From: an uncultured Candidatus Rokubacteria bacterium
GTDB lineage: Bacteria; Methylomirabilota; Methylomirabilia; Rokubacteriales; CSP1-6
Assembly (NCBI GenBank): GCA_963789955.1
Contig: CAWBMV010000021.1
Location: 1 to 64,000 of the forward strand
DNA: 64,000 bases
Direction: 5' to 3'
Part shown: positions 7,923 to 30,037 of the stretch, piece after piece
Layout: each line of letters starts with the position of its first letter
Position numbering within the stretch: position 1 is the first letter of the stretch
Position numbers and translations under genes: made by a program
The notes under the pieces: model-generated
The model's input: only the letters and a program-made list of their open reading frames with translations
The model's database searches: none
What the model was told of the DNA's origin: nothing

Positions 7923-8892
7923 CTAGGCGGCCGGCTCCCGCGCCGAGGTGGGGTCGCGGAGCTTCTCGGTCGGGAGCTGACTGTCCATCCAGAGCCCGAG
8001 GCCGCCCTGGAGAGGCCGGACCCGCGTGATGCCGTGACGCTTGAGCCGTAGCGCCACCCGGGCGCTGGTCGCTTCGTTGGGTCAGGTGCAGAACACGACG
8101 ATGTCGCGGTCGCGCGGAATCTCGAGGTGGCGCCGATCGATGTCGTCCGCGGCGAATCCACAGGGCGCCGGGGATCGTGTACGGCGTCATGTTCAGCTCG
8201 AGCGGCGACCGCGCATCCACGATCGTCAGACCGGAGTCCCCGGCCGCCAGGCGGTCCCGCAGCTCCTCGACCGTGATGCGCGCCATCCGGAGACTGCGCA
8301 GAAACCGCTGGCGCTGGGTGAACTTGATCGCGACGTACGCCACGATCGCCGCCGCGACGACGATCAGCAGCGCATTTCCCAGCCGCGCGGAATCCGACAC
8401 GATGAGCTCCAGCGCGTCACTGAACAGGTAGCCCACGGCGGCCCAGCTGCCGGCCCACACGAGCGCCGCGGCGCTGTCGAGCAACAGGAACTGCCGACGG
8501 GAGATCCCGACGACACCCGCCAGCGGCGGCGCGACCGTGCTCAGGCCGGGAAAGAATTTGGCGACCAGCAGGACGCCGCGCCCGTGCTTGACGAACGAAT
8601 CCTCGGCGCGCCGGACGCACGAGTCCGGCTCGAGCGAGATCCGACACAGAAGACGGAGGACTCGACCGCCACGCCGCCGCCCCAGCTCGTACCAGACGAT
8701 GTCGGGCGTGAGCGAGGCGACGAGGGCCACACCGAGCGCCGGCGCCAGACTCATCCGCCCCGCCCCGGCGAGCGCGCCAACGCCGAGCAGAACGGGCACC
8801 GCCGGAATCGGCAGACCGACTTGCTCGGCCAGCACGAACGCGAACAGCACGACGTAGCCGTATTGCAGCAAGACCTGGATCGTGTCGTCCAT
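7923..8892 (-). CDS. DedA/VTT-domain + rhodanese-domain protein; candidate selenoprotein (in-frame TGA 8082-8084); one frameshift near 8155
   Basis: N-terminal EQVGLPIPAVP, CRISLEPDSCVRR, AKFFPG. After a 1-nt shift the frame reads IPRDRDIVVFCT*PNEATSARVALRLKRHGITRVRPLQGGLGLW...AA to TAG 7923-7925. Confidence 0.85.
8050..8066 (-). promoter_or_regulatory. Putative bacterial SECIS hairpin
   Basis: mRNA UGA-CCCAACGAAGCGACC-AGCGCC-CGGGU-GGCGCU: 6-bp stem, G-rich loop starting 22 nt after the UGA. Confidence 0.65.
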
Positions 8893-9089
8893 CGCGGTGT
8901 GGCGCGCCCGGTTGCGCGCACTCCGAGGGTAACACCCGAGAGAAGTGCCGATCGCCTCACCTCGGATAAGGCGTACTCGCCTAGGACTTTGGCCCCGTGA
9001 CGCTCGAGGAACCTGGCGCGTAGACTCCTGACGGGCAGTTGAACATGACGGTCCCGCAGGCCGCAGCGAAGTAACCGACTGACTCCGCA

Positions 9090-9123
9090 CCGAGTCCTCT
9101 CCACTCCGAGGGAGAGGGCTCGG
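9090..9123 (-). terminator. GC-rich hairpin directly after the PPOX-class gene
   Basis: ccgagtcctctcc...ggagagggctcgg inverted repeat adjoining the stop at 9124. No clear U-tract. Confidence 0.45.
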
Positions 9124-9588
9124 CTACTTCGTCACCGCGTCGCGCATCTTGGCCAGCGCCGAGCCGTAGATGTGATCGGGGCGCACCACCATCGCGACGC
9201 GCTTGTCGCTCGCCGCGATCCGGTCGTACTGATCCCAGTCCGCGCTGCGCCGCCGCGTGGTGGCGCTGAAGATGTGGCGGCGAGCCAGACGCAGCGCGTC
9301 GGGGTCGGTGTTGCCGGAGTGCACCAGCTCGGCCTTGCCCTCGAAGACGAGGAAGCCCGACCACCAGTCGACGTGCGAGACCAGCACCGAGCAGCGCGGA
9401 TCGCGCAGGAGGTTTCTGAACTTCGCGCGCGTCTCCGTGATGGAGATGCCCACCCCACCGTCCCGCGGGTACACGGTGACGATGCTCAGCTGCGGCATCC
9501 CGTTGCGCCTGAACGATGTGAGCACGCCCTGCGGGTTGTCGTGGAGGAACTGCTCGATCTGCGGAGGCAGCGGGCTCGGCGTCGGCAT
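9124..9588 (-). CDS. PPOX-class (pyridoxamine 5'-phosphate oxidase-like, possibly F420-dependent) protein
   Basis: GVLTSFRRNGMPQLS...TETRAKFRNLLRDPRCSVLV...EGKAEL. AAGGAG upstream of the ATG. Confidence 0.8.
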   Translation of the reverse strand: MPTPSPLPPQIEQFLHDNPQGVLTSFRRNGMPQLSIVTVYPRDGGVGISITETRAKFRNLLRDPRCSVLVSHVDWWSGFLVFEGKAELVHSGNTDPDALRLARRHIFSATTRRRSADWDQYDRIAASDKRVAMVVRPDHIYGSALAKMRDAVTK

Positions 9589-9639
9589 GAGGTGCAGGCT
9601 CCTTGGCGAAGGGTTCGACTTCGGCCGGGATTCTAGCGC

Positions 9640-9684
9640 TTGACACGACCTCGGAGCGATGGCATCTATTAATCGAGTGATTAA
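9640..9684 (+). promoter_or_regulatory. TTGACA -35 box and palindromic operator TTAATC-N4-GATTAA (likely TetR site)
   Basis: ttgaca at 9640-9645. Perfect AT-rich inverted repeat at 9669-9684 between divergent genes. Confidence 0.6.
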
Positions 9685-9685
9685 A

Positions 9686-10360
9686 TTGAGTGCCCAAGGA
9701 AAGCGGCGACGGCCGAAGCAAGGACCCCGCCCCCGCGCCCTGCGGGAAGCCGACGCCGTGCCGATGCGCGAGACCATCGTGCAGGCGGCGAGCCGCTGCA
9801 TCGTGGAGCGAGGCCACGCGGCCCTGTCCACCCGGGCGGTGGCCGCCGAAGCCGGGGTCAATCAGAGCCTCATCCACTATTACTTCGGCACCAAGGAACG
9901 GCTGACGCTCGCGGTGCTCGAGCGCATGAACCAGATGCTGCTCAAGCGTCAGGCCGAGATGTTCGAGTCGACGGGCAGCGTGGCCGACAAGTGGGCGCAG
10001 GCCTGTCGCTTCTACGAGAGCGATCTGCAGTCGGGCTACGTGCGCCTGCTGATGGAGCTCTCCGCGCTGGGTGTCTCGAACGCGGCCATCGGGGACGAGG
10101 TGCGCAAGCTTCGGGGTCAGTGGCGGGCCCTGCTGGAGCAAGCGGTCGAAGGCGCGCTGGAGCACTTCGGGATCCGCTCGGTGTCGGCGGAGCATGTCAC
10201 GGCCTACCTGGTCGCCTTCTGGTACGGCATGGAGATGGAGATGGTGCTCGGCCTTCCCGAGGAGGAATCGCACTACTGGGCGAGCCTCGCGACCTTCGAG
10301 CGCTTCCTGCGATGGCTCGAAACGCAGCGTCGCGAAGGGCATCCTCCCACGCTCGGCTAG
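9686..10360 (+). CDS. TetR/AcrR-family transcriptional regulator (start uncertain: 9659, 9686 or 9764)
   Basis: HTH region LSTRAVAAEAGVNQSLIHYYFGTKE. Confidence 0.9.
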   Translation: MSAQGKRRRPKQGPRPRALREADAVPMRETIVQAASRCIVERGHAALSTRAVAAEAGVNQSLIHYYFGTKERLTLAVLERMNQMLLKRQAEMFESTGSVADKWAQACRFYESDLQSGYVRLLMELSALGVSNAAIGDEVRKLRGQWRALLEQAVEGALEHFGIRSVSAEHVTAYLVAFWYGMEMEMVLGLPEEESHYWASLATFERFLRWLETQRREGHPPTLG

Positions 10361-10369
10361 GAGGTCGGC

Positions 10370-12445
10370 ATGCGCGCGCGCTATCCGGATCGCGAAGGGA
10401 TCGTCGAGCACGGGGGTGTTCCGATCTCATGGGAGCTCTACGGCGAGGGCGAGCGGACGGTCATGCTCATCCCGCCCTGGCAGATCGTCCACAGTCGCAT
10501 CTGGAAGACGCAGATTCCCTATCTGGCTCGTCACTTCCGCGTGCTCACGTTCGATCCTCCCGGCAACGGGCGCTCGGGCCGACCGACCACCGGCTACGAT
10601 CACGATCGCGTCGTGGGCGGCGCCCTCGCGGTGCTCGATGCGACCGGGACCGATCGCGCGTCGCTCGTCACGCTTTCACGCTCGACGTGGCAGGGCGTGA
10701 TCCTGGCCGCCGAGCATCCCGAGCGGGTCGAGCGACTGGTGCTCACCGCCTGCGCGCTCGATCCCTCCCCGCGCGGCGGACCCAATTTCCACGCGCCGGT
10801 CGGTGACAATCCCAAGGGCTGGGCGAAATTCAACGCCGGGTACTGGCGCACTCACTATCGCGAGTTTCTCGAGTTCTTCTTCGCGCAGGTCTCGAGCGAG
10901 CCGCACTCGACGAAGCAGCACGAGGACGCGGTCGCGTGGGGTCTCGAAACCACGCCGGAAATCCTGATCGCCACGATCGACGAGTGGCAGTGCCACACGC
11001 CGCTCGCCGACCTGCTCGCGCGCGTGCGCTGCCCCACCCTCCTCGTGCACGGGACGGAGGACCGCGTGCGCCCCTTCGCGCTTTCCGAGCGGGCGCACGA
11101 GGCGATCGCCGGCTCCGTTCTGGTCGCGATGGAGGGGAGCGGTCACACCCCGAACGCGCGTGACCCGGTGCGCTACAACGTGCTGGTCCGTGAGTTTCTC
11201 GATCCGGAGCCCGCGTCGCGGCCGTGGCGCCGCGCGATGGCCCGCCGCCGGCGCGCGCTCTTCGTCTCCAGCCCGATCGGTCTCGGCCACGCGCTGCGCG
11301 ACGTCGCCATCGCCGAAGCCCTCCGCGCGCAGCGGCCGGATCTCGAGATCAGCTGGCTGGCGCAAGATCCGGTCACGCGCGTGCTCGAGGCGCGCGGCGA
11401 GACGATTCATCCGGCCAGCCGGCTCCTGGCCGGCGAATCCGCGCACTTCGAGTCGGAGGCCGGCGAGCACGACCTGCACGCCTTCTACGCCTGGCGCAAC
11501 ATGGACGAGATCCTCGTCGCCAACTTCATGGTGCTCCACGACGTGCTCGAGGCCGAGCCCTTCGACCTCGTGGTCGGCGACGAGGCGTGGGACGTCGACT
11601 ACTATCTGCACGAAAATCCCGAGCTCAAGCGGACCGCGTTCGCCTGGCTCACCGACTTCGTGGGCTGGCTGCCCGTCGATCCCGGGGATCGGCGTGAAGC
11701 CCTGCTGGCCGCCGACTACAACGCCGAGATGATCGAGCAGATCGCGCGCCTGCCACGCATCCGCGATGCCGCGCTGTTCGTGGGCAGCCCGGACGACGTG
11801 GTCGAGACCGAGTTCGGCCCCGGCTTGCCGCGCATCCGCGACTGGACGCGCGAGCACTTCGACTTCCCCGGCTACATCCTGCCGTTCGATCCGACCGCGT
11901 TCGCCGATCGCGAGGCGCTGCGCGCGCGCCTGGGCTTCCGCGCCGACGAGAAGGTCGTGTTCGCGGCGGTCGGCGGCACCGGCGTCGGCCATCACCTGCT
12001 GCGCCGGGTGATCGCGGCAGCGCCGGCCACGCGGCGGCTCGTGCCCGACGCGCGGATCGTCGTGGTCACCGGCCCGCGCATCGACCCGGCGTCCTTGCCC
12101 GCGGCGCCCGGCGTCGAGTACCGCCGGTTCGTGCCCGACCTCTACGCCCACCTGGCCGCTTGCGACCTGGCCGTCGTGCAAGGAGGGCTCAGCACCTGCA
12201 TGGAGCTCACGGCCACCAAGCGACCGTTCCTGTATTTCCCGCTGCGGAACCATTTCGAGCAGTCGTTTCACGTGCCGCACCGTCTGGCCCGCTACGGCGC
12301 CGGCACGCGGATGGACTATGGGCAAACCGACCCCGAGGCGCTGGCCCACGCCATCGCCGATGGGCTGAAGCGTCCGGTGCTCTACCGGGACGTGGAAACC
12401 GACGGCGCGCGCCGGGCGGCCGCCGTCATCGCGCGGCTCGTGTGA
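10370..12445 (+). CDS. Alpha/beta-hydrolase fused to a GT-B glycosyltransferase (GT28-like C-terminus)
   Basis: N-half FDPPGNGRS, HGTED, GSGH. C-half SSPIGLGHALRD, VGGTGVG, DLAVVQGGLSTCMEL, PLRNHFEQ. One intact 691-aa ORF. Confidence 0.85.
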   Translation: MRARYPDREGIVEHGGVPISWELYGEGERTVMLIPPWQIVHSRIWKTQIPYLARHFRVLTFDPPGNGRSGRPTTGYDHDRVVGGALAVLDATGTDRASLVTLSRSTWQGVILAAEHPERVERLVLTACALDPSPRGGPNFHAPVGDNPKGWAKFNAGYWRTHYREFLEFFFAQVSSEPHSTKQHEDAVAWGLETTPEILIATIDEWQCHTPLADLLARVRCPTLLVHGTEDRVRPFALSERAHEAIAGSVLVAMEGSGHTPNARDPVRYNVLVREFLDPEPASRPWRRAMARRRRALFVSSPIGLGHALRDVAIAEALRAQRPDLEISWLAQDPVTRVLEARGETIHPASRLLAGESAHFESEAGEHDLHAFYAWRNMDEILVANFMVLHDVLEAEPFDLVVGDEAWDVDYYLHENPELKRTAFAWLTDFVGWLPVDPGDRREALLAADYNAEMIEQIARLPRIRDAALFVGSPDDVVETEFGPGLPRIRDWTREHFDFPGYILPFDPTAFADREALRARLGFRADEKVVFAAVGGTGVGHHLLRRVIAAAPATRRLVPDARIVVVTGPRIDPASLPAAPGVEYRRFVPDLYAHLAACDLAVVQGGLSTCMELTATKRPFLYFPLRNHFEQSFHVPHRLARYGAGTRMDYGQTDPEALAHAIADGLKRPVLYRDVETDGARRAAAVIARLV

Positions 12446-12475
12446 GCCGCGCTATTGACACCCATGGAGGCTTCG

Positions 12476-13649
12476 ATGAACGCGACGACCAAGACCACCC
12501 TCTCCGACGAACTGATCGGCCGTTGCGGTAGCCGAGCGGCGGCGTACGATCGCGACAACCGGTTCTTCACCGAAGATTTCGAGGAGCTGCGCGCCGCGGG
12601 CTATCTCAAGATGGCGGTGCCGGAGCATCTCGGTGGCCCCGGCATGACCCTGGCCGAGATCTGCCGCGAACAGCGGCGTCTGGCCTACCGCGCGCCGGCC
12701 ACGGCGCTCGCGACGAACATGCACCTCTACTGGACCGGGCTCGCCGCCGACATGCGGCGGGCCGGCGACAAGTCGCTCGAGTGGATTCTCGCCGAAGCGG
12801 CCGCGGGTGAGGTCTTTGCCGCCGGCCACGGCGAAGCCGGCAACGATTTGCCGCTCTTCCTGTCCACGGCGAAGGCCGAGCGCGTCGACGGCGGCTATCG
12901 CTTCTGGGGTCACAAGACCTTCGGCAGCCTCACACCCGTGTGGACGCGGCTGGGCCTGCACGCGATGGACGCGAGCAATCCGAGCGCACCGCAGATCATC
13001 CACGCGTTTCTCCCGCGCGACGCGAAGGGCTACTCGATCAAGGAGACGTGGGACACGCTCGGCATGCGCGCGACGCGGAGCGACGACACGATCCTCGACG
13101 GCGCCTTCGTGCCGGACCGCTACATCGCCCGGCGGCTGCCGGCCGGCACCGCCGATCTCTTCGTGCTGTCGATCTTCGGGTGGGCCGAGCCGACGTTCGC
13201 CAACATCTATCTCGGTCTGGCCGAGCGTGCCCGCGACCTGGCGGCGGCCGGCGTCAAGAAGCGCACGTCACTCGCCCTCACCCGGTCGATGGCGTACCAC
13301 CCGGAGGTCCAGCGCTGCTTCTCGGAGATGCAGCTGGCCCTCGAGGCGAGCGACCGCCCAGGTCGACCGCATCGCCGACGACTGGTCGAATCAGGTCGAT
13401 CACGGCATGGCGTGGCCGATGAAGCTCGTGGCGGCCAAGCACAACGCGGTCGAGGCCGCCAAGAAGGTCGTCGATCTCGCGATGTCCGTCTCGGGCGGCA
13501 CGGGCATGTTCAAGTCGAACGAGCTCGAGCGGCTCTATCGAGACGTCCGCTGCGGCGGGTTTCATCCGGCCAACTCGATCCTGGTCCACGAGATCGTCGG
13601 CAAGACGGTGCTCGGGATCGGTCTCGGCGAGCAGCCGCGGTGGGGATGA
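12476..13649 (+). CDS. Acyl-CoA dehydrogenase-family protein (frameshift near 13350)
   Basis: GGYRFWGHKTFGS, WDTLGMRATRSDD. C-terminal ELERLYRDVRCGGFHP lies in the frame ending at 13649. Confidence 0.88.
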
Positions 13650-13682
13650 TCAGGACACACATGGTCTGAGCTGAGCGCGCTG

Positions 13683-13716
13683 CACCGCAGGGCCGTCGGG
13701 CAACGGCCCTGCGGTG
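13683..13716. terminator. Perfect 14-bp hairpin between convergent genes
   Basis: caccgcagggccgt-cgggca-acggccctgcggtg. Confidence 0.55.
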
Positions 13717-13719
13717 TTG

Positions 13720-14234
13720 CCACGCCATCCGGAGCGGCGTCACCGGCGTCCACGGCACGGCAATCGCCTTCTGGAGCTTGCCCATCTTGTCGTACACGCG
13801 AATCTCCGAGCCCTGCCGATTGCAGACATAGACCATGCCGTCGTTGGTGAACGTTCTCCATGTCGTCGATGACCCAGTGGCGGAGGAACTTGCCCGTGCT
13901 GTCCATGACGGCGACGCGGCGATTGGTGCCCGCGCCTTCGCCGTCCGACACGTAGACGTCGTCATTGGCCCGGTCCACGAAGATGCTGGACGGCATGAAG
14001 AAGGTGGCCGCCGGCGAATTCAGTGGCTTGCCAGGATCAGCACGTGATCCTTCGCGTCGACGCAGATGCCGCCGAGTCCGCCCAGGACCCAGCGACCGGG
14101 AAGCGGCTTCGGCCAGTGGACAACCGCCGGTAGCGGAGCGAGCTCTGCGTCAGCGAGAGCGACGGAAAGAACATCCCCGCGGCAATCGCCAGCACGGCGC
14201 CGGCGCCGACCCTGCGAATGACCCCTCTGTTCAT
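13720..14234 (-). pseudogene. Secreted NHL-repeat/beta-propeller protein remnant with internal deletions
   Basis: Signal-peptide-like start, then WPKPLPGRWVLGGLGGICVDAKDHVLIL, FFMPSSIFVDRANDDVYVSDGEG and DGMVYVCNRQGSEIRVYDKMG in different frames. Far shorter than a full propeller. Confidence 0.65.
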
Positions 14235-14264
14235 GTCCGCGCCCCTCCACGCATTGCCACGAAG

Positions 14265-16727
14265 TTAGGAGCGCTCCGCCTGTCCGTCGACCAGCCGGTC
14301 GATCTCGACCGCCAGCGCCACCGCGTCGTTGCTGAAGTAGTGAGTATGCGCGCCGGCGCCAAGGCAGAATTGCGCGCGATCGCCCGCGCGGTCGGCTTCG
14401 ACTCGGCCATCCGATCCGATCAGCGCGATGCGATACGAATCGGCCGGCGGCGCCCAGACGCAGACGCCCGACGTAGTCGCCCGATCGGAAGGCGTTGACC
14501 CATTCGACCGCGCCGATGTCGGCCGCGCTCGGTCCCGCGGTCGCGAAGTCCACGGCGTTCGAGCCCATCCAGCCGTACAGCAGCGGGAAATGCTCAGCGT
14601 ACAGGTCGCGCAGCGGCGAGCCGACCGTCACGAGCGCGATCGGAATATCGCCGATGACGTCGGGCAATCGCCGTTGCACGTGCAGATAGCGCAGCAGGTC
14701 GGCGCTGATCACGGTGCCCTGGCTGTGCGACACGATGACGATACGCGCGTAGGCGTGGTCGCGCAGATAGACGAGCAAGGAGGCGTAACGCGAATAGATA
14801 CGCGCGCGAGGCGGCTGCAGGTTGGGCGGATCCCTGAAGTAGTTGTCGACGTCCAGCACCGCGTCGAGCGTGACGCGCAACCGGCCGAAGGTTCGCGTGA
14901 ACCTCGAGCCGAGGGCGGCGATCGTCAGCGCGCCACCCGCCAGCCATTTGCCCGCGGAGACCAGGGTCTCGCCCTGCAAATAGTCCAGCCAGCCGGCGAC
15001 CCACTTAGCCCAGGCTCCGGCGGGACCGGCCGAGAAGAATTGCTCGTAGACGAACGCCAGGTACAGCAGCCCGCCGATGATTGCGCCGGGCGGCACCACC
15101 AGGACGAACGTCTTCGTCAGTCGTTTGAGACCGCTCCCGAGCCATCGGCCGAGTCGTTCCGACCACACGACGGCCTCGCGTCGGCGCCCGCGTGCATCGA
15201 CGTTCGTCGTCGGAGAGATTTCTTCGAGCAGCGAGGGCATCAGCACCAGCAGGGCGGCCGACCCGAGCGCGGTGAAGGCCAGCACGAGCGGCGTGAAAAA
15301 CCCGCCGAAGGTCTCGATGCGGGCGTCGAGATAGATGTCGGCCGAGCGATAGCCGGCACCGATCAGCACCGGCAGGTAGAGGAAGTCGTTCAGCTGGTGC
15401 CCGGCGACGTAGCTGATCACCGACCACAGCACCAGGCTCAGCACGGCGAACAGCGCGGTGGAGCCGACAACGGCCAGGCGAGCCGTGTTCAGCGACTGCC
15501 TCGCGGCGCGATCGACACCGCGGCTCAGCCAGAGTCCGAGCACCAGCGCCGCCGTCTGCACGACGACGTAGACCGCCCAGACCAGCAGCAGCGCGGCGAG
15601 CAGCCATTCGGCCACGTTGAACGCGGCGGTCAGCATCCATTCGGCCTGGCTGCTGACGTGCGGCAACAACGCGCGGCCGTCGAGCGACAGCGCGATGACG
15701 GTCGCGACAACCAGCAGATGGCCCAGCACACGCACGCCGCGCGTGACGCGCGCGTATCGTTCGATGAGCCAGGCGCCCAGGACGGCGACGGCCAGGACAC
15801 CGGCGGTAAAGTGCATCACCGGCAGCTCGGTCTCGACCCTCAGGGCCACGACGACGGCCACGGAACACGCGAGGGCGGCCGCCAGCAGCACGACGAGCCT
15901 CGCCCAGCGCCCCGCCGGTGATGTTCCGCGCAGCCACGCCAGCACGGCGAGCGCGCTCAAGACGATCGCGCGCTACCGCGAACAAGGCCGCGAGCATCTG
16001 GGTCTGCTGGTCGATCGACACCAGCCCCGCCGCTCCGAACAGGACCAGCAGGAGCATCGCCAGCTGTACGAGCGCCGCCGGCCCCTTCATCAACCACGCG
16101 AGCCACGCGTGCATGCGCTGCAGAAGCCGCCAGGCGGCGCCGCCACCGACGCTCAGCGAGACCTGATCGACGACGTCGGCCGCGAGCGTACCCGAGGTGG
16201 AAAAAGAGCTGGTAGAGCGCGGACAGCGCCCGGAATCCGCCTTCGCCCAGCCGGGAGAGATCGGCCCAGTAGAGCTCGAAGATGTCGACGGGGCGATCGT
16301 TCGCCCGCCGGCGCAATGAGACGCGGGTCGATTCGTAGAGCGCTTCGCGCTCCGGGAGCTCGAGACGGCCGAGCAGGTAATCGTTCAGCGCGAGGCCGAG
16401 ATCGGGCGGGCGCGACTCCGCGGCGCCGACGGCCGGCGCCGATTTCTGCGTCTGGTAGAAGCCGCTCGGCGTCCCCGGCCGCCGCCTCGACGTTTCCGTT
16501 CCTGGCGCGCCGCCGGGCGACGGATGGGTCGCGGCGGGTGAGGCGGCGCCGCCGGGCTCGAGCTTGGCCACCGGCACCAGCACCTCGTGCATTTCGCCCT
16601 GCACGTAGCGCGGCTCGCCTTCCCCGCCGTGGCACAAGAGCCGCGCGAGCTCGCGCACCGTCTGTCCCGCACGCTGATCGGCGATGCCGTGGACCACGAC
16701 GACGGCAACGCGATCGGGCGTGCTCAC
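14265..16727 (-). CDS. Large polytopic membrane protein with split alpha/beta-hydrolase motifs (several frameshifts)
   Basis: N-terminal VVVVHGIADQ and ELYWADLS, a long multi-TM middle, then C-terminal SHSQGT, LVTVGSPL, WVNAFRSGDYVG and CLGAGAHTHYF, ending at TAA 14265-14267. Confidence 0.7.
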
Positions 16728-16742
16728 CGCGGACGGCCTGGG

Positions 16743-17780
16743 TTACCTGGAGGGATCCGGCCCCACCTTCACGAGCATCTTGCCGAGATTCTCGCCGCGC
16801 AGCAGACCGATGAAGGCGCGCGGCGCCTGATCCAAACCTTCGACGACGTCTTCACGATATTTGAGCCGCCCCCCGCGCACCCATCCCCCGCAGTCCGCGA
16901 GGAACGCGGGCATCCGATCCGCGTGATCGGAGACGATGAAGCCACGGACGGTCACGCGGTTGACCAGGACCGCGCCCAGGTTGGGGCCCGGCGGCATTTC
17001 GGTGGCGTTGTACTGCGAGATGATGCCGCAGAGCGGGACGCGCGCGAACGGGTTCACCAGCCGCAGCACGGTCTTCAGCACGTCGCCGCCCACGTTGTCG
17101 AAGTACACGTCGATGCCCTTGGGACAGGCGTCCTTCAACGCGGCGAAGAGATCCGGCGATCGATAGCTCACGCAGGCGTCGAACCCGAGCTCCTTGACGA
17201 CGTAGTCGCACTTCGACTGAGCCCCGGCGACGCCGACCGCGCGGCATCCCTTGATCTTGGCGATCTGGCCGACGGCCGACCCGACGGCGCCGGCCGCCGC
17301 CGACACCACGACCGTCTCGCCCGGCTTGGGTTGGCCGAAGTCGAGCAGGCCGACGTATGCGGTCATGCCCGGCATGCCCAGCACACCGAGTGCCGCAGAG
17401 ATCGGCGCGACCTTGGGATCGAGCTTCAAGGGACCGAACGGTCCCGGCGCTGCGCCGGGGCGCGCGATGTGGTAGGTCTGCCAGCCGCCGTAGCCGAGGG
17501 CGAAATCGCCACGCTGGAACGCCGGGCTGCGCGACTCCACCACCTCGCTCACGGTGCCGCCGACCATCGGCGCCCCCAGCTCGACCGGCGCGGTGTAGGA
17601 CTTCACGTCGTTCATGCGTCCACGCATGTAGGGATCCAGCGAGAGATAGATCGTGCGGCACAGAATCTCGCCATCGCCCACCGTCGGCATGGGCGCGTCG
17701 GCGATCTCGAAATCTGTCGGCTTCGGCTCACCGGTCGGTCGGCTCTTGAGCAACACGCGGCGATTCGTCGTGGTTGGCAC
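16743..17780 (-). CDS. NADP-dependent oxidoreductase (CurA/YncB, PTGR1-like MDR)
   Basis: YLSLDPYMRGRM, LGVLGMPGMTAY, SAAAGAVGS, YFDNVGG, GENLGK. Confidence 0.92.
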   Translation of the reverse strand: MPTTTNRRVLLKSRPTGEPKPTDFEIADAPMPTVGDGEILCRTIYLSLDPYMRGRMNDVKSYTAPVELGAPMVGGTVSEVVESRSPAFQRGDFALGYGGWQTYHIARPGAAPGPFGPLKLDPKVAPISAALGVLGMPGMTAYVGLLDFGQPKPGETVVVSAAAGAVGSAVGQIAKIKGCRAVGVAGAQSKCDYVVKELGFDACVSYRSPDLFAALKDACPKGIDVYFDNVGGDVLKTVLRLVNPFARVPLCGIISQYNATEMPPGPNLGAVLVNRVTVRGFIVSDHADRMPAFLADCGGWVRGGRLKYREDVVEGLDQAPRAFIGLLRGENLGKMLVKVGPDPSR

Positions 17781-20825: not shown

Positions 20826-20836
20826 CTCCTTCGCCG

Positions 20837-21130: not shown

Positions 21131-21155
21131 AGCATTCTCCTTTTGTCTTGAGCGG

Positions 21156-21941
21156 TCAGGCCGCTGTCACGCCGCCGTCGACCGGCAACGCGACGCCCGT
21201 GACGAACGACGCTTCGTCCGAGAGCAGGAACAGCGCCGCGTTGGCGATCTCGTCGGGCTTACCCGTGCGACCCAGCGGCACGGAGCCGTGAGCGCGCTTG
21301 CGCACGAGCTCCTCCGGATCCATGCCGGCCGTCGACTTCTGATCGGGGCGTGAGACGAACACGCGCAGCATCGGCGTGTCGATCGGACCGGGACAGACGG
21401 CGTTCACGCGAATCTTTTCGGGCGCCAGCCGCAGCGCCAGGCTCTTGACGAAGCCCACCACGCCGAACTTGCACATCGAGTAGACCGGGCTGAAGCCGGA
21501 TCCCACCAGCCCGGAGGTCGACGCGGTATAGAGGAGGCTCCCACCGCCCCGGGCGCGTAGCTCGGGAATAGCCGCCTCGGTCGTGATCAGCACCGTGCGG
21601 AGGTTGAGGTCGACCGCCAGATTGAAGGCGCTCATGTCGATACCCTCGATCGCGGCCGGCCCGGGATGACCGACATGGTTCCAGACGAAATCCAGCCCCT
21701 TGAACCGGTTCACGGTGTCCCACACGATGCGGCGCGAATCCTCGTCGTTCGTCAGGTCCGCCGTGATGCCGTGCGCGACGCCGCCTGCCGCGGTAATCTC
21801 GCCCACCACGCGCTTGACCCCAGCAGCGTCCACGTCGACGACGGCGACCTGCGCGCCTTCTCGCGCGAAGCGCAGGGCTCCGGCCCGTCCCATACCCGAG
21901 GCAGCAGCGGTCACGATCCCGATCTTTCCGGCCATGCGCAT
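21156..21941 (-). CDS. SDR-family oxidoreductase
   Basis: TAAASGMG, YSMCK (YxxxK), RVNAVCPGPIDT, LPVDGG. Confidence 0.92.
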   Translation of the reverse strand: MRMAGKIGIVTAAASGMGRAGALRFAREGAQVAVVDVDAAGVKRVVGEITAAGGVAHGITADLTNDEDSRRIVWDTVNRFKGLDFVWNHVGHPGPAAIEGIDMSAFNLAVDLNLRTVLITTEAAIPELRARGGGSLLYTASTSGLVGSGFSPVYSMCKFGVVGFVKSLALRLAPEKIRVNAVCPGPIDTPMLRVFVSRPDQKSTAGMDPEELVRKRAHGSVPLGRTGKPDEIANAALFLLSDEASFVTGVALPVDGGVTAA

Positions 21942-22141
21942 CGGTAGACCTCCGACGGAGATTGAGTCTCGATCCTACTATAGTGAGAGCCCCTTCGAGC
22001 CTAGCCCGGCCGGTTGACTTGTCGCGCGGGCTCTGACAGGATCGGCGCGAGCTTGACGCACCGATTCGCGCACGCCCTCATCCATGCCTGCCCCGGCACG
22101 GGGCACACGCACGAAGACCACGAGTCCCCAGGAGGCTCATC

Positions 22142-22990
22142 ATGACCCGACGTCGACTTGCCGCCATGGCGGTCACCGCACTCCTCTGCGCGGCGCCCGC
22201 GCTCGCCCAGGAAAAACTTCCGCCCTTGAGAACCGGGGTCGACGGCACCTTCGCGCCGCACGCCATGCCCAAGCTGGGCGGCGGCATCGAGGGCTTCCAG
22301 GTCGACCTCTTCACCGAGGTCGCGCGTCGCATGCACCGCGAGATCACCATCGACGCGGTGAGCTTCTCGACCTTGATCCCCGGCATGCAGTCCGGCCGCT
22401 ACGACTTCATCGCCGCGCCGACGACAGTGACCAAGGAGCGGGCAGAGAACATGCTCTTCACCGCGGGCTATCTCTGGACCGCGTACCAGTTCGGCATCAA
22501 GAAGGGCTCGGAACCGATCAAGGGCTGGGCGGACCTCAAGGGCAAGTCGGTCTCCGTCAACAAGGGCACGCCGTACGAGACCTTGTCCAAGGCCATGGGC
22601 ACCGAGCACGGCTTCACGGTGCAGGTCTATGACACCCAGCCGGACGCCACGCAGGCCGTCCTCTCGGGCCGCGCCTACGCGACCCTCGGCGGCAACACGA
22701 CGATCGTGTACGCCGCGTCGAAGAATCCGCAGTTCGTGGCCGATCTCGAGCTCAAGGAGACGCGCGCCCACTGGGCGGCGCCGGTGCCCAAGAACAACCC
22801 GAAGCTCCGCGCCGAGCTTCAGGATGCGCTCGACTGCATGAAGAAGGACGGCACGATCGCCAAGATGTCCGAGAAATGGTTCGGCAAGAAGCCGGCGCCC
22901 GACGACCTGCAGGTGGTGATCACACCGGGCTACGGCCCGCCGGGTATGCCGGGGTACGATCCGACGCCGCACGAGCTTCACTGCCACTGA
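22142..22990 (+). CDS. Polar amino-acid ABC transporter substrate-binding protein
   Basis: Signal peptide, GFQVDL, LIPGMQSGRYD, MKKDGTIAKMSEKWFG. Confidence 0.9.
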   Translation: MTRRRLAAMAVTALLCAAPALAQEKLPPLRTGVDGTFAPHAMPKLGGGIEGFQVDLFTEVARRMHREITIDAVSFSTLIPGMQSGRYDFIAAPTTVTKERAENMLFTAGYLWTAYQFGIKKGSEPIKGWADLKGKSVSVNKGTPYETLSKAMGTEHGFTVQVYDTQPDATQAVLSGRAYATLGGNTTIVYAASKNPQFVADLELKETRAHWAAPVPKNNPKLRAELQDALDCMKKDGTIAKMSEKWFGKKPAPDDLQVVITPGYGPPGMPGYDPTPHELHCH

Positions 22991-22999
22991 TCTGAGGGA

Positions 23000-23740
23000 A
23001 TGAACGGCCCGATCGTCGACGCGCGCGGGCTCCACAAGCATTTCGGCGCCCTTCACGTGCTGAAGGGCGTCGATCTCCGGGTGGCCGAGCGCGAGCTGGT
23101 GTTCGTGATCGGGCCGTCGGGGTCGGGCAAGTCGACCCTGCTGCGCTGCCTCAACCGGCTGGAGGAGCCGTCTTCCGGCAGTGTCGTGGTCGACGGCATC
23201 GACATGCTCGACCCGCGGACCGACATCAACCATGCGCGTCAGCGCATCGGGATGGTCTTCCAGTCCTTCAACCTCTATCCGCACATGACGGCGCTCGGCA
23301 ACGTGACCCTGGCGCTGCGCAAGGTCGCGGGCAAGTCGCGCGCCGAGGCCGAGGCGCTGGGCCGGGCCGCGCTGGAGCGGGTCGGCCTCGCCGATCGCGC
23401 CGAACACACGCCGGGTCAGCTTTCGGGCGGCCAGCAGCAACGGGTGGCCATCGCGCGCTCGATTGCGCTCGAGCCCCGCGTGATGCTGTTCGACGAGCCG
23501 ACCAGCGCGCTCGATCCCGAGCTGGTCGGCTCGGTGCTCGAGGTCATGCGCTCCTTGCGCGAAAGCGGCATGACGATGATCGTGGTCAGCCACGAGATGG
23601 GATTCGCCCGCAACGCCGCCGACCGCGTCGTGTTCATGGACGAGGGCGCCATCGTGGAGGAAGGTCCGCCCGCCGTGATCTTCGAACGCCCGACCCACGA
23701 GCGCACGCGCACCTTCATCGGCCAGATTCAGCGGCACTGA
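23000..23740 (+). CDS. Amino-acid ABC transporter ATP-binding protein (GlnQ-like)
   Basis: [40 protein letters not shown]. Confidence 0.95.
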
Positions 23741-23787
23741 GGGGCACCCTGGACCGTTTCGTCGAGACGTTCCTCAACACGAAGGTC

Positions 23788-24420
23788 ATGCTCAAGTACC
23801 TGCCGGACATCCTGTCCGGCGTGGTGGTCACGATCGAGCTGGCCATCCTGATCGTCGTCACCGGTATTGCCGCCGGCCTGGTCCTGGCCCTACTCAGAAG
23901 CCTCGGCATCCGGCCGCTCAACTGGCTGATCATCGCGGTGGTCGACCTGTTCCGCTCGCTGCCGCCGCTCGTCGTCATCGTGCTGATCTACTTCGGCCTG
24001 CCGAGCGCCGGCCTTTCACCTTCGGGCTTCGTCTCGACCTGGCTGTCGCTGGCGTTCGTGCTCATGGCGTTTTCCGAGGAGATCTTCTGGGCCGGCATCA
24101 CCTCGGTCGCCAGGGGCCAGTGGGAGGCCGCGCGCTCGACCGGCTTGTCGTTCGGCCAGACCTTGATGAACGTCGTGCTGCCGCAGGCCTTCCGCCTGGC
24201 GATCCCGCCGCTCACCAACCGCACCATCGCCATCACCAAGGGCACCGCGCTCGGGACCGTCGTCGCCGTCACCGAGATCCTCGGGCAGGCGAGCTCGGCC
24301 ATGTCCAACTCCTACAATCCTTCACCGCTGATGATGGGCGCCGCCGCCTACCTGGTCCTGTTCTTCCCTGTCGTGGTCGCGGGCCGCTGGGTCGAGACCA
24401 AGTTCGCGTGGAAGCGATGA
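23788..24420 (+). CDS. Amino-acid ABC transporter permease (frame open from CTG at 23749)
   Basis: FRSLPPLV, GQWEAARSTG, VLPQAFRLAIPPL. Confidence 0.9.
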   Translation: MLKYLPDILSGVVVTIELAILIVVTGIAAGLVLALLRSLGIRPLNWLIIAVVDLFRSLPPLVVIVLIYFGLPSAGLSPSGFVSTWLSLAFVLMAFSEEIFWAGITSVARGQWEAARSTGLSFGQTLMNVVLPQAFRLAIPPLTNRTIAITKGTALGTVVAVTEILGQASSAMSNSYNPSPLMMGAAAYLVLFFPVVVAGRWVETKFAWKR

Positions 24421-25079
24421 TCCAGACTTTCTTCAACCCGGAGATCATCGTCGCGTCCTGGCCGATCGTGCGAGCGGGGCTCCTGAACACCGTGCTGCTG
24501 TCGCTGCTCGTGGTGCCGCTCGGCCTGCTCGGCGGATTGATCCTGGCGTTGCTGGCGAGCGTGAAGCATCCCGCGGTCCGCTGGCCGCTGATCGCGTGGG
24601 TCGATTTCTTCCGCGCCTTCCCGCCTCTGGTGCTGCTCATCTTGTTGTTCGCCGGGCTGCCATTCGCCGGCCTGGAGCTGGGCGGCTTCGTCTGTGTCGC
24701 GATTGCCTTCTTCCTCAACACCGGCGCCTACTACGGCGAGATCCTGCGAGCGGGGATCGATTCGGTACCGGCCGGCCAGGTCGAGGCCGCCCGCTCCACC
24801 GGCCTCTCGCGCCTGCAGGCCATGACCTACGTGGTCCTGCCGCAGGCCGTGCGCAACGTGCTCCCCGATCTGCTCTCCAACACGCTGGAGGTCGTGAAGC
24901 TCACCGCGCTCGGCAGCGTGGTCGCGGTGCCGGAGCTCCTCTACCAGGCGCGCCAGGCGCAGAGCCTGACCTACAGCCCGACGCCCATCGTGGTGGCGGC
25001 GGCCATCTATTTCCTGCTGCTGTGGCCCGTGGTGCGGCTCTTGAGCCGATTGGAGAACCGCGCGCTCGCGGCGCGATAG
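24417..25079 (+). CDS. Amino-acid ABC transporter permease
   Basis: FFRAFPPLV, AYYGEILRAGI, GQVEAARSTG. Confidence 0.9.
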   Translation: MIQTFFNPEIIVASWPIVRAGLLNTVLLSLLVVPLGLLGGLILALLASVKHPAVRWPLIAWVDFFRAFPPLVLLILLFAGLPFAGLELGGFVCVAIAFFLNTGAYYGEILRAGIDSVPAGQVEAARSTGLSRLQAMTYVVLPQAVRNVLPDLLSNTLEVVKLTALGSVVAVPELLYQARQAQSLTYSPTPIVVAAAIYFLLLWPVVRLLSRLENRALAAR

Positions 25080-25124
25080 CGCGACGGCGATTCCGCTATG
25101 CTACCGCCCACGGAGGACACCACG

Positions 25125-25733
25125 ATGAATCCCCGCGCCCTGCGACACCGCACGCTCGTTGTGCTCCTCGTGCTGGGACTCGCACTCGTCGCACCGCACG
25201 CACCGTGGTCGGGCTCGCCGCGCGCCGAGTCCGACCGCGCGGCGATCAGCCGGAGCGGCGTGCTCGGCGGCGCGAGCTACCTGATCGAGGTGCCCGCGAA
25301 GTGGCAAGGCGGTCTCGTGGTCTTCGCGCACGGGATCCAGCGGCGAGTGCGGCGGCTGCATCCGGCGAAGGACTCCCGATCACCGAGCGCGAACCCCGTG
25401 TACGCGGAACGCACCGGTCAGCTGAAGGCACCGCTCATCACCGTACACGAGACCGGCGATGCGTGGGTGCCGTTGAGCCTCGAGCAATCCTATCGGCGCC
25501 GCACGATCGCCGCCGGTACCAACCACCTGCTGGTCCAGCGGGTCACGCGCGGGCCGGGTCACTGCGCGTTCGACGCCGCGACGATCGCCCAGGCGTTCGA
25601 CGATCTGGTCGCGTGGATCGAGCGCGGCGTGCGGCCCGTCGGCGAGGATGTGCTCGCGCCCGATCTGTCACGCATCGGGCTCAAGTGGACGCCACATCTG
25701 CTGCTGGAGGATCCGCTCGCGCCGCGCCGGTAA
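25125..25733 (+). CDS. Secreted alpha/beta-hydrolase-like protein, apparently lacking its central part
   Basis: Signal peptide, then [19 protein letters not shown] joined almost directly to [20 protein letters not shown]...GPGHCAF. No GxSxG motif. Confidence 0.55.
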
Positions 25734-25742
25734 CGCTCGGCA

Positions 25743-27120
25743 TTATCGTCGCGGCGTCGGATCGAACCAGCCGCCGTCGGGCGGCGATCAGGGCATTCGC
25801 TTCCGGTGGCCCCCATGTCCCGCGCTCGTACTCGTGCACCGGAGCGCCGGCGCGCAGGATCGGATCCAGGATTCGCCACGCCTCCTCGACGTAGTCCTGA
25901 CGCGCGAAGCGGAGCGAGTTGCCCCGGAGCGCGTCGAACAGCAGCTCCTCGTACGCCCCCATCTCGGCTGGATCGGAAGCCTCGCTGATCACGAGCTCGA
26001 CCGGCTGCCCGTCGAGCTCTCCGCCCGCTCTCTTCACCAGAGCGCCGACCGCGATCATGAGATCGGGTGTGACGCGGAAGCGGAAGTAGTTGGCCGGAGG
26101 CGGAAGCTCCGAGAACACCGACGGCGGCTGGCGCAGCTTGACGAGCACTTCCGTGGCCGTCACCGGAAGGCACTTGCCCGCGCGGATATAGAAGGGCACC
26201 CCTTTCCATCGCCACGAATTGATCGCGAGCTTGAGCGCAACGTAGGTTTCCACGGACGAATCCGCGGCGACGCCGGGCTCGTCGCGATAGCCTCGGAACT
26301 GGCCACGCACGACGTCACCCGACGCGAGCGGGCGAATTCCCTTCAGGACTTTCGCCTTTTCGTCCCTCAGCATCTCGACGTCCAGACCGGGCGGAGGCTC
26401 CATGGCAATGTTGGTCAGCACCTGCAGCAGGTGGTTTTGCACGACGTCGCGCAAGGCTCCGGTCTGGTCGTAGAATTTTCCGCGCCCCTCGACGTCGAAG
26501 TCTTCCGCCATCGTGATCTGCACGCTCTCGACGTACTGCCGATTCCACAAGGGCTCGAGAAACGAGTTGGCGAAGCGAAAGAACAGCAGGTTCTGCACGG
26601 TGTTCTTGCCCAGATAGTGGTCGATACGGAACACGTTGTCTTCGGAGAAGCTTCGGTGGACGGCCGAGTTCAAGGTGCGTGCCGTGGCCAGGTCGTGCCC
26701 GAACGGCTTCTCGATCACGACACGCCCGCCCTTCGCACATCCGGATTCACCGAGCTGATCGACGACGGTCTCGAACAGGCTCGGCGGGATCGCCAGATAG
26801 TGCGTCGGGTGCCGGGCGTCGCCGAGCTCTCGGCGCAGGCTTCTGAACGTCGCCGAATCGGCGTAGTCGCCGTCGAGGTAGCGCAGGCGGCGCGCGAGTC
26901 GGCCGAACGCGTCCGGATCAAGACCGCCGTGCCGCTCGACGCTGTCGCGGGCGCGGGCCTTCAGCTGATCGAGCGTCCAGCCGGCCTTCGCGACCCCGAT
27001 GACCGGAATGTCGAGGTGGCCGCGCTTGGCCAGCGCCTGCAGGGCGGGAAATATCTTCTTGTAGGCCAGATCCCCGGTCGCCCCGAAAAACACCAGCGCA
27101 TCGGACGGTTCGGGGCTCAT
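25743..27120 (-). CDS. zwf: Glucose-6-phosphate 1-dehydrogenase (frameshift near 3' end)
   Basis: [49 protein letters not shown]. Confidence 0.95.
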
Positions 27121-27166
27121 CGTGCTAGAACTCTGCGGGAGCCGCATCTTTCGCCGCGAAGGGCGG

Positions 27167-28514
27167 TCAGCAGCAGACCCATTCGAAGTCGATGATCAGA
27201 CGAGTCTTTGCACCATCGCCTCGGAGCGTGGAAGCCCGATCGGCCGCGACGAAGTCGAGCAGCCACTGAGCCTTCCGGTGGAGCCCTGCGCCGGCTGGAT
27301 GTCGCCGTCGAACGCACCGGCCTTGCGGGCGGCCACGATGGCGTCGATCCACTGTCGCCTCGCCGCGCGCTGGAGCAGCGCGTTGTGCCGGTCCTGGATC
27401 GCAACCACACGGCCCTCGAGCTCCTTTTCGGGCACAGAGTGGCAGGGCTGGCAGGCCCGGTTGAGGTTGAGCAGTGGGCGCCGGACGCGTGGTCGATCAC
27501 CCTCGAGCGCGCCGCCTCGCTGATAGGGCATGTGGCAGTCGGCGCACGCCACGCCGGCGCGCGCGTGGATGCCCTGGTTCCACACCTCGAACTCCGGGTG
27601 CTGCGCCTTGAGCATCTTGGTGCCGGTATCGGCCGCGTCCAGTCCGTGAAGCCTTCCTTGTCGTAGTACGCCTCGATCTCCTCGACCTTCAGGCCGTTGG
27701 CCCACGGATACGTGACGGTCTTGCTGGCGCCCTTGAAGTAGTACTCGACGTGGCACTGGCCGCAGACGTACGCCCGCATCTCCTGGTGTGTGGCGTCGCG
27801 GTGCGGGTCGTAGTCGGCGACGCCTGCTGGGCTTTGAGCGCCTTGATCCCGGCGATGAATCCCGGGCGCGTCACGCGCAGCCCCATCGTATTGAGCTCGT
27901 GGCAGTCCACGCAGGCGAGCGGGTGATGGACCAGGAGCTGGCCCTTGTCGTCCTTCATGCCGTGCGCCTGCTGGTAGGGCATGGCGTTGACCTGCTCGAA
28001 GCCCTTCGTGACGTCGCCCTTGCCGACGAAACGGTAGAGAGCCAGGTTGGCCGCGTGACACTGGAAGCAGGCGCCGGCAGCTTGTTCTCGGTCACGCGGC
28101 GCGTCTGCTCCTGGTCGAAGAGCGCGGAAGGCGTGGATCGCGACGGTCGCGATAGTCGATGGCGAACGGCGTAGCCGGCGAAGATGCGACGCAGCCACGG
28201 GTCCCGGTCGAGCTTCTGCTCCGCGGGGCCGCCGTCGCTGGCGCCGAGACCGCGGCCTCCGTACTTCGTTGCCGTCGAGCAGGGATGTCTTGAGATAGCT
28301 GTCGTACTCGGCCGGCCAGTTCTGGCCCCACACCTTCGGGTCCATGGTGTCCTCGGTCACCTCGACCAGGCGCACGAACGGCTGTCGGGCCTCTTGCTTG
28401 CGCTCGAAGATGTTGGTGAGCAAGGAGAGCGGCAGCACGGTGAGACCGGCCGCGGCAACAAAGCCCAGCGCAAAGAGCAACCAGGTCCGTCTCGTCGTCG
28501 CGCTGTCCGGTCAT
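27167..28514 (-). CDS. nrfA: Ammonia-forming cytochrome c552 nitrite reductase, heavily frameshifted (or a pseudogene)
   Basis: Fragments [66 protein letters not shown] and GFHAP across frames. Lies directly downstream of nrfH. Confidence 0.85.
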
Positions 28515-28541
28515 GTCGGCTCCCCTCGTGCGTGATCCGGT

Positions 28542-28991
28542 TCAGTCGCCAGCGCCATGGCCGGCCCCGCGGTGGCAGTGCATGCAATCGATGCCGCCAC
28601 GCGCCGGCTCCGCAGTCGCCAGCAGGTCGTGCACGAGCCCTGCGTGACATCGCACGCAGTTGTCCTGCACCATCCGCCGATCGCGCGCCGTGATCTCGAT
28701 CGGCTCCTTGAAGTTCTGCAGCGTGAAGGCCGCCGAATGTCGGAACCCGTGCTCCGCCTTGGCCACCCACTTCGCCAGGCCCGCGTGCGGCAGATGGCAC
28801 TCGACGCAGGTGGCCGCGTGGCGGTGCCCGCTCTTGAGCCAGGCGTCGTACTGCTCGTTCATGACGTGGCAGTTCACGCACGCACGCGGGTCGGTCGAGA
28901 GGTAGGAGAAGCCCTTCGCGTAGACGAAGGTGAAGGCCCCGACGCCGACCGGGACACCAAGAAGTAACAGGCACGCCATGACGAGTCGCAT
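28542..28991 (-). CDS. nrfH: Cytochrome c nitrite reductase small subunit (tetrahaem, NapC/NirT family)
   Basis: N-terminal TM, SYLSTDPRACVNCHVM, CVECHLPH, CVRCH, CMHCH. Confidence 0.92.
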   Translation of the reverse strand: MRLVMACLLLLGVPVGVGAFTFVYAKGFSYLSTDPRACVNCHVMNEQYDAWLKSGHRHAATCVECHLPHAGLAKWVAKAEHGFRHSAAFTLQNFKEPIEITARDRRMVQDNCVRCHAGLVHDLLATAEPARGGIDCMHCHRGAGHGAGD

Positions 28992-29107
28992 TTACCGGTT
29001 CCGACGATGGGGCATGGCCGAGCCGCAGCCGCACGACGATATGCCGACGGCGCCCCGCTCGCCACTGGACGAAGGTCCTATCGAGGCGCTTGCTGCCGGT
29101 CCGTCGT

Positions 29108-30037
29108 CTACGCTCTGAGGCCGACCGCCGCGCGCGCGTGCGCCTCGCGCTCCACGGTCGCGTTGATCTGCGCGCGCGGATCGAACGCGCCCTCGAGCAC
29201 GCCCCAGCTGGCCATCCACTCCCACGCCCAGCGCGCCTCGGCTTCGGGAATGGGTCCCGGCTCCTTCAGCTGGATGCGACCGAGATCGAAATCGTCCGGC
29301 GTGAGCTTCTCGACGTCGGGGTGGCCCGGGAAGTCGGCGATGAAGTAGGACACGTACCGGCGCTTGTCCGCATTGATGCGTCGCACCGCCCGCGTGACCC
29401 CTCGCACGAAGGCAGCGTACGTCTCGGCGGTCACGCTTCGATCGGCGACCCAGGTGCCGTGGAAGAACGTGGTCGACACGACGCGGCAGCCCTTCTTCTC
29501 GGCGATCGTGATCCACGGCTCCTGCAGCACCGTGGCCTCGACCTCACCTCGGAGCACCGCGTCGAGCCGGTCGCTCGAATTGACCGTGGCGGCGCAGGTG
29601 GTGATCGCCTCGCGCGGCATCGCGCCTTCCAGCATCTGCAGACCGGCATACGCGGTGCCGTTGCCGTAGTCGAGCGCGACCATTCGGTGCGCGAGCTCCT
29701 GCGGCGTGAAGATGTCGGAGCCGGGGCGGACCACCAGCCCGGCGCACACGACCATCGCACGGCGCCCAACCTGGAGGGCGCCCACTGCGCTTTCCGCCAC
29801 CCGGCGGTTATTGCCGCACTCTCACCCCTGGAACATGGCGGCTTCGCCGCGGTCCATGAGCTTGCCCTGGACCGAGACGGGCCGCGTGAGCGTTCCGTCG
29901 GCGGTGGACGGGGCATCGGCGGCCGCCGGCGCGATCCGGAGATCCAGGCCTTCCGCGGCGAACAGGCCTTCGTCCCTGGCGACCAGCACGTCGAGGCCGT
30001 TGAAGGCGCGCACTCTCTCGATCGTCATCGCTGTCAT
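29108..30037 (-). CDS. Binding-protein-fold (NMT1/SsuA/TauA-like) protein without signal peptide; candidate selenoprotein (in-frame TGA 29822-29824), 309 aa with read-through
   Basis: ORFs 29822..30037 and 29108..29800 are in the same frame, separated only by TGA: AMFQG*ECGNNRRVAES. LVARDEGLFAAEGL and LQEPWITIAEKKG are typical of this fold. Confidence 0.8.
29786..29818 (-). promoter_or_regulatory. Putative bacterial SECIS hairpin
   Basis: mRNA UGA-GAG-UGCGGC-AAUAA-CCGCC-GGGU-GGCGG-AAA-GCGCA: 5-bp upper stem, GGGU loop starting 20 nt after the UGA, A-rich internal loop and lower stem. Confidence 0.65.

Follow-up and report, generated by a model that had tools for sequence, protein, structure and literature searches.

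We analysed a 64,000-nucleotide stretch of DNA (hereafter the window) from an uncultured Candidatus Rokubacteria bacterium (contig CAWBMV010000021.1, positions 1 to 64,000), in which two non-homologous genes on the minus strand, referred to here as gene A and gene B, are each interrupted by an in-frame TGA codon followed by the same short motif, CGCC(C)GGGUGGCG. Gene A encodes a DedA-rhodanese fusion and gene B a protein with an SsuA-type fold (Table 1). A first-pass annotation of the window had recorded the motif at exactly these positions, with loops beginning at +22 in gene A and +20 in gene B and with Arg-Val-Ala (R-V-A) encoded at both hairpins, and all of this was reproduced; the loops are 5 and 4 nt long, and R-V-A lies one codon later in gene A (GGGU at +23 versus +20). 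Sequence comparison indicates that both TGA codons very likely encode selenocysteine (Sec), because the Sec machinery is present in the genome, the TGA is conserved, Cys occupies the same position in homologues and gene A belongs to a known CxU type. Both hairpins are under selection at the RNA level, and we consider it highly probable that they are ordinary bacterial selenocysteine insertion sequences (SECIS), whose common letters would have arisen by convergence in two families and would not be a signal of the organism.

Table 1. Genes, codons and hairpins in the window (positions of the whole stretch)
Feature	Position	Strand	Remark
Gene A, DedA/VTT domain fused to a rhodanese, C-T-U motif	7923..8892	-	ATG 8892, TAG 7925-7923
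Extra base splitting gene A between DedA part and rhodanese tail	8155	-	likely assembly error; absent from contigs of 3 of 4 public runs
In-frame TGA of gene A, predicted selenocysteine	8082..8084	-	conserved TGA, Cys in homologues
Predicted SECIS hairpin A, 6-bp stem AGCGCC/GGCGCU, 5-nt loop CGGGU	8050..8066	-	loop starts +22
Gene B, 309 residues read through TGA, SsuA/NMT1/THI5 fold, U72-E-C74	29108..30037	-	
In-frame TGA of gene B, predicted selenocysteine 72	29822..29824	-	conserved TGA; Cys in distant homologues
Predicted SECIS hairpin B, 5-bp stem CCGCC/GGCGG, 4-nt loop GGGU	29794..29807	-	loop starts +20

Gene A is a DedA-rhodanese fusion with a conserved TGA codon and a covarying hairpin

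The DedA part of gene A was recognised by the Pfam model VTT_dom (E 4.6e-10), and the rhodanese tail by the NCBIfam model NF041203, rhodanese-related (seleno)protein, whose match spans the TGA and is the best one in NCBIfam (E 9.5e-14); its score of 51.2 bits, against a curated cut-off of 115, comes from only the 61 residues behind a frameshift. Around the TGA the protein reads V-F-C-T-U-P-N-E-A-T-S-A-R-V-A, with the CxU motif inside the rhodanese domain. It thus resembles form 3 of the rhodanese-like selenoproteins (CxU, NF041203; Table 1 in the accessible part of PMC13188914), likewise having C-T-U at the active-site loop, and differs from it by the fusion to a DedA/VTT membrane domain. The frameshift is due to a single extra base between the two parts of the gene. 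This base is missing from the contigs of three of the four public runs, the fourth having no depth there, and in relatives of gene A the frame ahead of the TGA is open over a long stretch; the insertion is likely an assembly error.

Relatives were collected by a right-frame protein search over 101 genomes of the class. All 30 best loci, gene A itself included, have TGA at the Sec position; GCC/GGC stands under the loop in each of them, the stem has at least 5 bp in 29, and the exact motif is present in 22. Another 20 relatives, taken from the matches listed as having no stop, carry Cys (3), Ser or Thr (16) or Glu (1) at the Sec position according to the alignment. These retain R-V in 13 cases and R-V-A in nine, and the exact motif in a single one, a TCA copy that is one base away from TGA; none of the three Cys copies has GCC/GGC under the loop. 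Three proteobacterial homologues have Cys at the Sec position and possess neither R-V-A nor the hairpin.

Hairpin A (AGCGCC-CGGGT-GGCGCT) was followed in a set of 44 rhodanese sequences, which leans towards the motif. Three of the six pairs show two-sided change, a result reached by 0 of 500 shuffles, while the three GCC/GGC pairs and the G at the second loop position are invariant. The stem is not restricted to the lineage either: in the family to which a Ktedonobacterales genome belongs, 13/13 TGA rhodaneses keep it, G-U-G replacing G-G-G (loop C-GUG-U in 12). In one of these, a C-G pair has become U-A, a compensatory change that is synonymous at both sites.

Some further observations concern this gene. 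The family of the Ktedonobacterales genome commonly carries TGA rhodanese genes (13 of 30 fetched loci, L228-L256). Two rhodanese relatives (L182:1562, plus strand, and L290) have TCA instead of TGA and the full hairpin, and these are either recent Sec-to-Ser changes or read errors. In a rhodanese-like paralogue group common in the lineage (L291-L309), the Sec position reads C-T-S or C-T-T, often where a long open frame ends. Tail to tail with gene A lie an encapsulated ferritin-like gene and then an encapsulin shell gene (window 6587-7914, plus strand).

The hairpin of gene B is absent from aligned copies of its Cys sister clade

In gene B, TGA stands at position 72 in 27/27 aligned copies (25 public loci and two in the genome itself; two more loci, in which position 72 is not covered, were left out). 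Among 150 distant representatives, 55 cover this position, and 52 of these have Cys, in 51 cases as C-x-W. The context of the TGA is M-F-Q-G-U-E-C-G-N-N-R-R-V-A. Hairpin B (CCGCC-GGGT-GGCGG) is paired in 99.2% of the cells across 25 distinct sequences, synonymous identity at codons +1 to +10 is 0.93 versus 0.61 elsewhere in the gene, and the rare codon AAT is kept in 26 of the 27 copies.

A sister clade with Cys, found in some of the same genomes as the TGA form, reads C-E-W-G-N-Y-C-R-V-Q at this site with codons CGC-GTS-CAG; R-V is present in all seven aligned copies, and no counterpart of hairpin B is found in them. The caution in the first-pass annotation that R-V-A might be constrained by the protein is therefore well founded, as R-V persists in 13/20 non-TGA rhodaneses and 7/7 Cys sisters of gene B that lack the hairpin. 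Hairpin B would apparently have been built by a change of Y-C-R-V-Q to N-R-R-V-A. Positions 74 and 78 lie four apart within one helix, and the second Cys of gene B may have shifted by one helical turn (from +6 to +2) once codon +6 joined the stem; C78 is not invariant among the Cys forms. As a separate observation, more distant relatives in the lineage (L205-L214) have C-A-C-H-W or S-A-C-H-W at the same place and form a wide cysteine-bearing branch of the fold.

The genome encodes the selenocysteine machinery and at least 45 Sec sites

The source genome (6.77 Mb, 68% GC, 87% complete) contains selA, selB, selD and selC (tRNA-Sec), each scoring above its family cut-off; selA, selB and a tRNA with the UCA anticodon are grouped on contig C1, and selD lies on C6. 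This is the only UCA-anticodon tRNA called (69.8 bits on the tRNA-Sec model), and no second match to the model above the cut-off was found in this 87% complete genome. The C-terminus of SelB matches solved SelB winged-helix domains, with 1lva as the best chain (E 4.6e-26); 1lva, 2ply and 1wsu range from E 4.6e-26 to 1.3e-17, versus 1.6e-6 for 5lzb and 4.9e-4 for 2pjp. 1LVA and 1WSU are Moorella thermoacetica structures (accessible part of PMC4605307), and it is to the Moorella structures that the C-terminus of the present SelB is nearer, a point of difference from the E. coli formate dehydrogenase system.

To list Sec sites, a three-periodic coding model was used to find stops flanked on either side by coding signal, 80 candidates were picked by eye from these and from looser lists, and the read-through products were scanned for protein families. 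Support was obtained for 45 Sec sites, the two in the window included: 43 through a family match across the TGA and two, the gene B paralogues, through Cys homologues. The genes concerned encode SelD, two formate dehydrogenases, two PrdB-like and seven UGSC proteins, as well as thioredoxin-fold, peroxiredoxin, AhpD-like, Rdx, DsrE, ArsC, OsmC, MerB-like and rhodanese proteins. The number is a lower bound, because the likely site C34:1135545 was passed over by the filters. Four additional Sec copies lie on contigs that are 91-94% identical to others and perhaps represent a second strain.

A test blind to hairpins found a strong hairpin with G-G or G-U in the loop after 33/178 read-through-like TGA codons versus 5/145 TAG or TAA codons (p 1.8e-5), the figure for true TGA stops being 88/1665. 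When, for the first 44 sites, the strongest stem was taken without any requirement on the loop, a G-G/U loop was found at 39, an upper figure because these sites came partly from hairpin-filtered lists; among the Sec sites that also pass the hairpin-blind filters it is 36/39. In the controls such a loop occurred in 3/39 Cys paralogues, 66/1788 true stops and 218/4666 random codons. The genome-wide rule is thus a perfect stem of 4-10 bp with a loop of 3-6 nt that holds G-G or G-U and lies some 20 nt downstream of the UGA. Loops of the 39 hairpins are mostly of 3 or 5 nt (28/39 in one register versus 304/796 in the background), while their stems are otherwise free in sequence, 29 of the 39 being of other than the GCC/GGC type of the motif.

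Three observations on the genomic material may be added. The selD gene (C6:164410, plus strand) has an in-frame TGA and is apparently frameshifted some 35 codons further on in the assembly. Contig pairs C4/C3, C8/C13, C36/C2 and C32/C1 have 18-38 kb in common at 91-94% identity, perhaps from a co-assembled second strain. Records titled Acidoferrum (L028) and Dormiibacterota (L038) encode SelB proteins 77% and 69% identical to that of the present genome and are probably Rokubacteria.

The shared motif follows few of the Sec sites

The first-pass annotation had proposed that the motif is the element bound by the SelB of this organism and that it could be used to mine a larger selenoproteome. The large hidden selenoproteome does exist, in view of the 45 or more sites, but the motif follows only four of 44 Sec sites and would miss the other 40. 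These four are two gene B paralogues (binding-protein fold) and two rhodanese paralogues, that is, two families only. Over the two strands of the 6.77-Mb genome, 28 exact copies of the motif were counted. Seven occurrences lie at +17 to +27 after an in-frame TGA versus 3.6 expected from density, and two after TAG; four of the seven are Sec sites.

The proposal had also been made to depend on the hairpins of known selenoprotein genes of this genome, and those of SelD, FdnG and FdhA all differ from the motif (0/3). The SelD hairpin is CTCCTGGA-GATC-TCCAGGAG and that of FdnG GGTCGTCA-GTC-TGGCGGCC, while the FdhA hairpin, CGTCGCC-GGGCT-GGCGACG, has only the CGCC/GGCG arms in common with it, around a different loop. 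Searched against 44 sources, a covariance model of the rhodanese hairpin recovered only its three close rhodanese paralogues; site B and the remaining Sec sites gave no match.

Both hairpins resemble known bacterial SECIS elements

According to the accessible part of PMC13188914, the model of the bacterial SECIS (bSECIS, used by bSECISearch) comprises a loop of 3-9 nt on a stem of 4-16 bp, 16-37 nt from the UGA and inside the coding sequence, with G in the first two loop positions and the pattern N1-G-[G/U]-N-N2. Hairpins A (6 bp, 5 nt) and B (5 bp, 4 nt) lie within these stem and loop limits, their UGA-loop spacings are 21 and 19 nt, and both have the early G (C-G-G-G-U and G-G-G-U). Their folding energies as single sequences of 45 nt, -13.8 and -14.2, are also within the bSECIS limit of <= -7.5 kcal/mol. 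Most of the other Sec sites of the genome fit the model too, so there is no difference in kind, although within its range the loops here are mostly of 3 or 5 nt on perfect GC-rich stems. The SECIS of E. coli formate dehydrogenase, as described in the accessible text of PMC8659212, is marked by G23, U24 and a bulged U17. Hairpins A and B likewise carry G and U in their apical loops, at about 20-24 nt from the UGA, but the bulged U17 of the upper stem has no equivalent in them, as both are perfectly paired. A Methylomirabilota genome with 63 predicted selenoprotein genes (Deng et al. 2026, as cited in the accessible part of PMC13188914) belongs to the same phylum and gives a selenoproteome of comparable size, 63 versus at least 45 here.

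Convergence and its alternatives

How could two unrelated genes come to share 12-13 letters? If the hairpins are ordinary SECIS elements, SelB would insert selenocysteine at both UGA codons by means of hairpins A and B, and the loop would have to sit about 20 nt past the UGA, within codons +6 to +9. Arg-Val, at 7-9 codons after the site, would already have been present in the non-Sec relatives of both families, and selection would have fixed CG(G/U)-GUG-GCG, which supplies both the G-G/U loop and the GGC arm. Pairing would then dictate the CGCC arm, and because of this the 12-13 shared letters would be hardly more informative than three residues in common. We infer this course of events from the non-Sec relatives that serve as controls. 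Several observations weigh against so simple an account. Taken as single sequences, the two hairpins are no more stable than shuffled versions (z -0.52 and -0.78), so that their reality rests on conservation and not on energy; the stem of hairpin B shows no covariation anywhere, and a possible lower stem beneath it is reached by 74-88 of 500 shuffles. To these one should add the hairpin-based selection of some sites mentioned above, and the exceptions to the G-G/U rule: SelD with its GAUC loop, two peroxiredoxin sites and two weak stems. At the peroxiredoxin sites (C1:604271, plus strand, and C17:148590, minus strand) no G-G/U hairpin was found at +14 to +30, and the signal may be atypical or further off. 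The likely glutaredoxin-like Sec site P-G-U-S-S-C (C34:1135545, plus strand) lacks a G-G/U loop, and its stem is interrupted; together with SelD it may form a second loop class. Finally, GCC/GGC closes the loop in 6/20 family labels versus 1.2 expected, and in 6/33 collapsed hairpins versus 26/796 (3.3%) in the background (p 6e-4), a post hoc comparison that falls to 4/31 (p 0.018) without the two query families. This excess hints, if weakly, at something that pure convergence on R-V-A does not explain.

It could reflect a SelB that takes a variety of stems with a preference for GCC/GGC just beneath the loop, which would have helped to draw the two families together. The invariance of the three GCC/GGC pairs in 44 rhodanese sequences and the Moorella-like C-terminus of SelB agree with such a preference, but 29 of 39 hairpins carry other stems, GCC and GGC are cheaply supplied by Ala and Gly codons, and the V-A-G-L-A of FdhA is probably a protein motif; we regard the preference as unlikely. 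That the motif is a lineage consensus usable for mining is extremely improbable. It is true that both families hold it very tightly, and that 134 of 151 genomes of the class contain matches to a TGA-anchored pattern, whose reversed control matches less often; yet, besides the other Sec sites, the covariance model and the rhodaneses of another phylum, the in-frame cases recognisable by eye among the matches listed (375 others lie beyond these) are rhodanese copies. Recoding of the UGA codons as cysteine by a special tRNA of the SelC*/tRNA-ReC type likewise requires a SECIS (accessible part of PMC13582414), but the single UCA tRNA beside selA and selB, with its score on the tRNA-Sec model, makes this highly improbable. 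As to true stops or sequencing errors followed by chance hairpins in 68% GC DNA, the assembly does have indel errors, and the folding energies would allow it. However, as the first-pass annotation had expected, the TGAs are no sequence errors: gene B has the same codon in all 27 copies and gene A in its 30 best loci, distant homologues have Cys, synonymous constraint is limited to the stem, and the hairpin is lost in non-TGA relatives, so this explanation is practically negligible.

Gene B as an apparent member of an uncatalogued selenoprotein family

The predicted model of gene B (predicted local distance difference test, pLDDT, 94.2) has the two-lobed type II binding-protein fold of the SsuA/NMT1 type, in which a strand ends at position 72, ahead of helix 73-82; U72 would be used in the ligand cleft. 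No signal peptide or lipoprotein signal was visible on inspection by eye, and the first strand of the fold begins at residue 2, which aligns to residue 25 of SsuA. No neighbour family is common to more than five of the 27 gene B loci, and there is no conserved permease and ATPase pair among them, which sets gene B apart from ABC binding proteins of the SsuA/TauA/NMT1 type in spite of the similar fold. THI5, DszB and MqnD are cytoplasmic enzymes with an SsuA-type fold. Gene B would be a cytoplasmic protein with a fold like THI5/DszB, most likely an enzyme or a sensor, a view to which we give roughly an even chance; an ABC permease gene 28 bp upstream of gene B in the window speaks against it, and a permease family is found near gene B in five of the 27 loci.

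Sec-containing ABC substrate-binding proteins are known, namely SaoX and SaoB, whose Sec/Cys is said to face the cleft (accessible part of bioRxiv 10.1101/2022.07.06.499078). They likewise have a binding-protein fold, and SaoX is likened there to 4NMY and 2X26, both of which are also matched by the gene B model. However, gene B matches neither NF040735 nor NF040727 at E 0.1, its motif is G-U-E-C and not UxP or CUxxT, no lipoprotein signal was seen, and the nine-gene SAO cluster is not beside it in the 27 loci. Among NCBIfam models, no seleno-family matches gene B, the only hit being TIGR01728 at E 0.047. A family of this type (SsuA-type, U-x-C) is not in the 119-family catalogue of PMC13188914 in its accessible part, whose table has SaoX (UxP), SaoB (CUxxT) and BtuF (CxxU), although it could figure among the candidates tabulated by Deng et al. 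2026; literature searches for the family or lineage of gene B did not find the family either. In databases its members are truncated at the UGA, the 120 best proteins being 175-237 aa long and none having the Cys-form motif. Gene B thus appears to be a member of an uncatalogued selenoprotein family. One may go further and see in it an uncatalogued family of cytoplasmic selenoenzymes recording the birth of a SECIS in coding sequence (Y-C-R-V-Q to N-R-R-V-A, second Cys from +6 to +2), and at the same time ascribe the likeness of the two families to a SelB favouring GCC/GGC; we consider this combined reading less likely than not.

As for the genes around it, an ABC permease gene and a frameshifted solute-binding protein gene lie directly upstream of gene B (window 30065-32920, minus strand). 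Downstream (25681-28991, minus strand) are genes for a NapC/NirT-type cytochrome, a cytochrome c552 (nrfH/nrfA-like, frameshift-broken) and glucose-6-phosphate dehydrogenase.

What the two hairpins mean

What had been proposed as a new signal comes down to the known bacterial SECIS and thus gives no new mining tool. On the other hand, about 45 natural hairpins read by one SelB are a ready test set for the tolerance of this protein. The two families of the window also provide a clean natural control for the origin of a SECIS within coding DNA, because the residues persist in their non-Sec relatives whereas the codons do not. Should gene B prove to encode an enzyme, selenium chemistry would be added to a fold whose known members mostly serve in binding.

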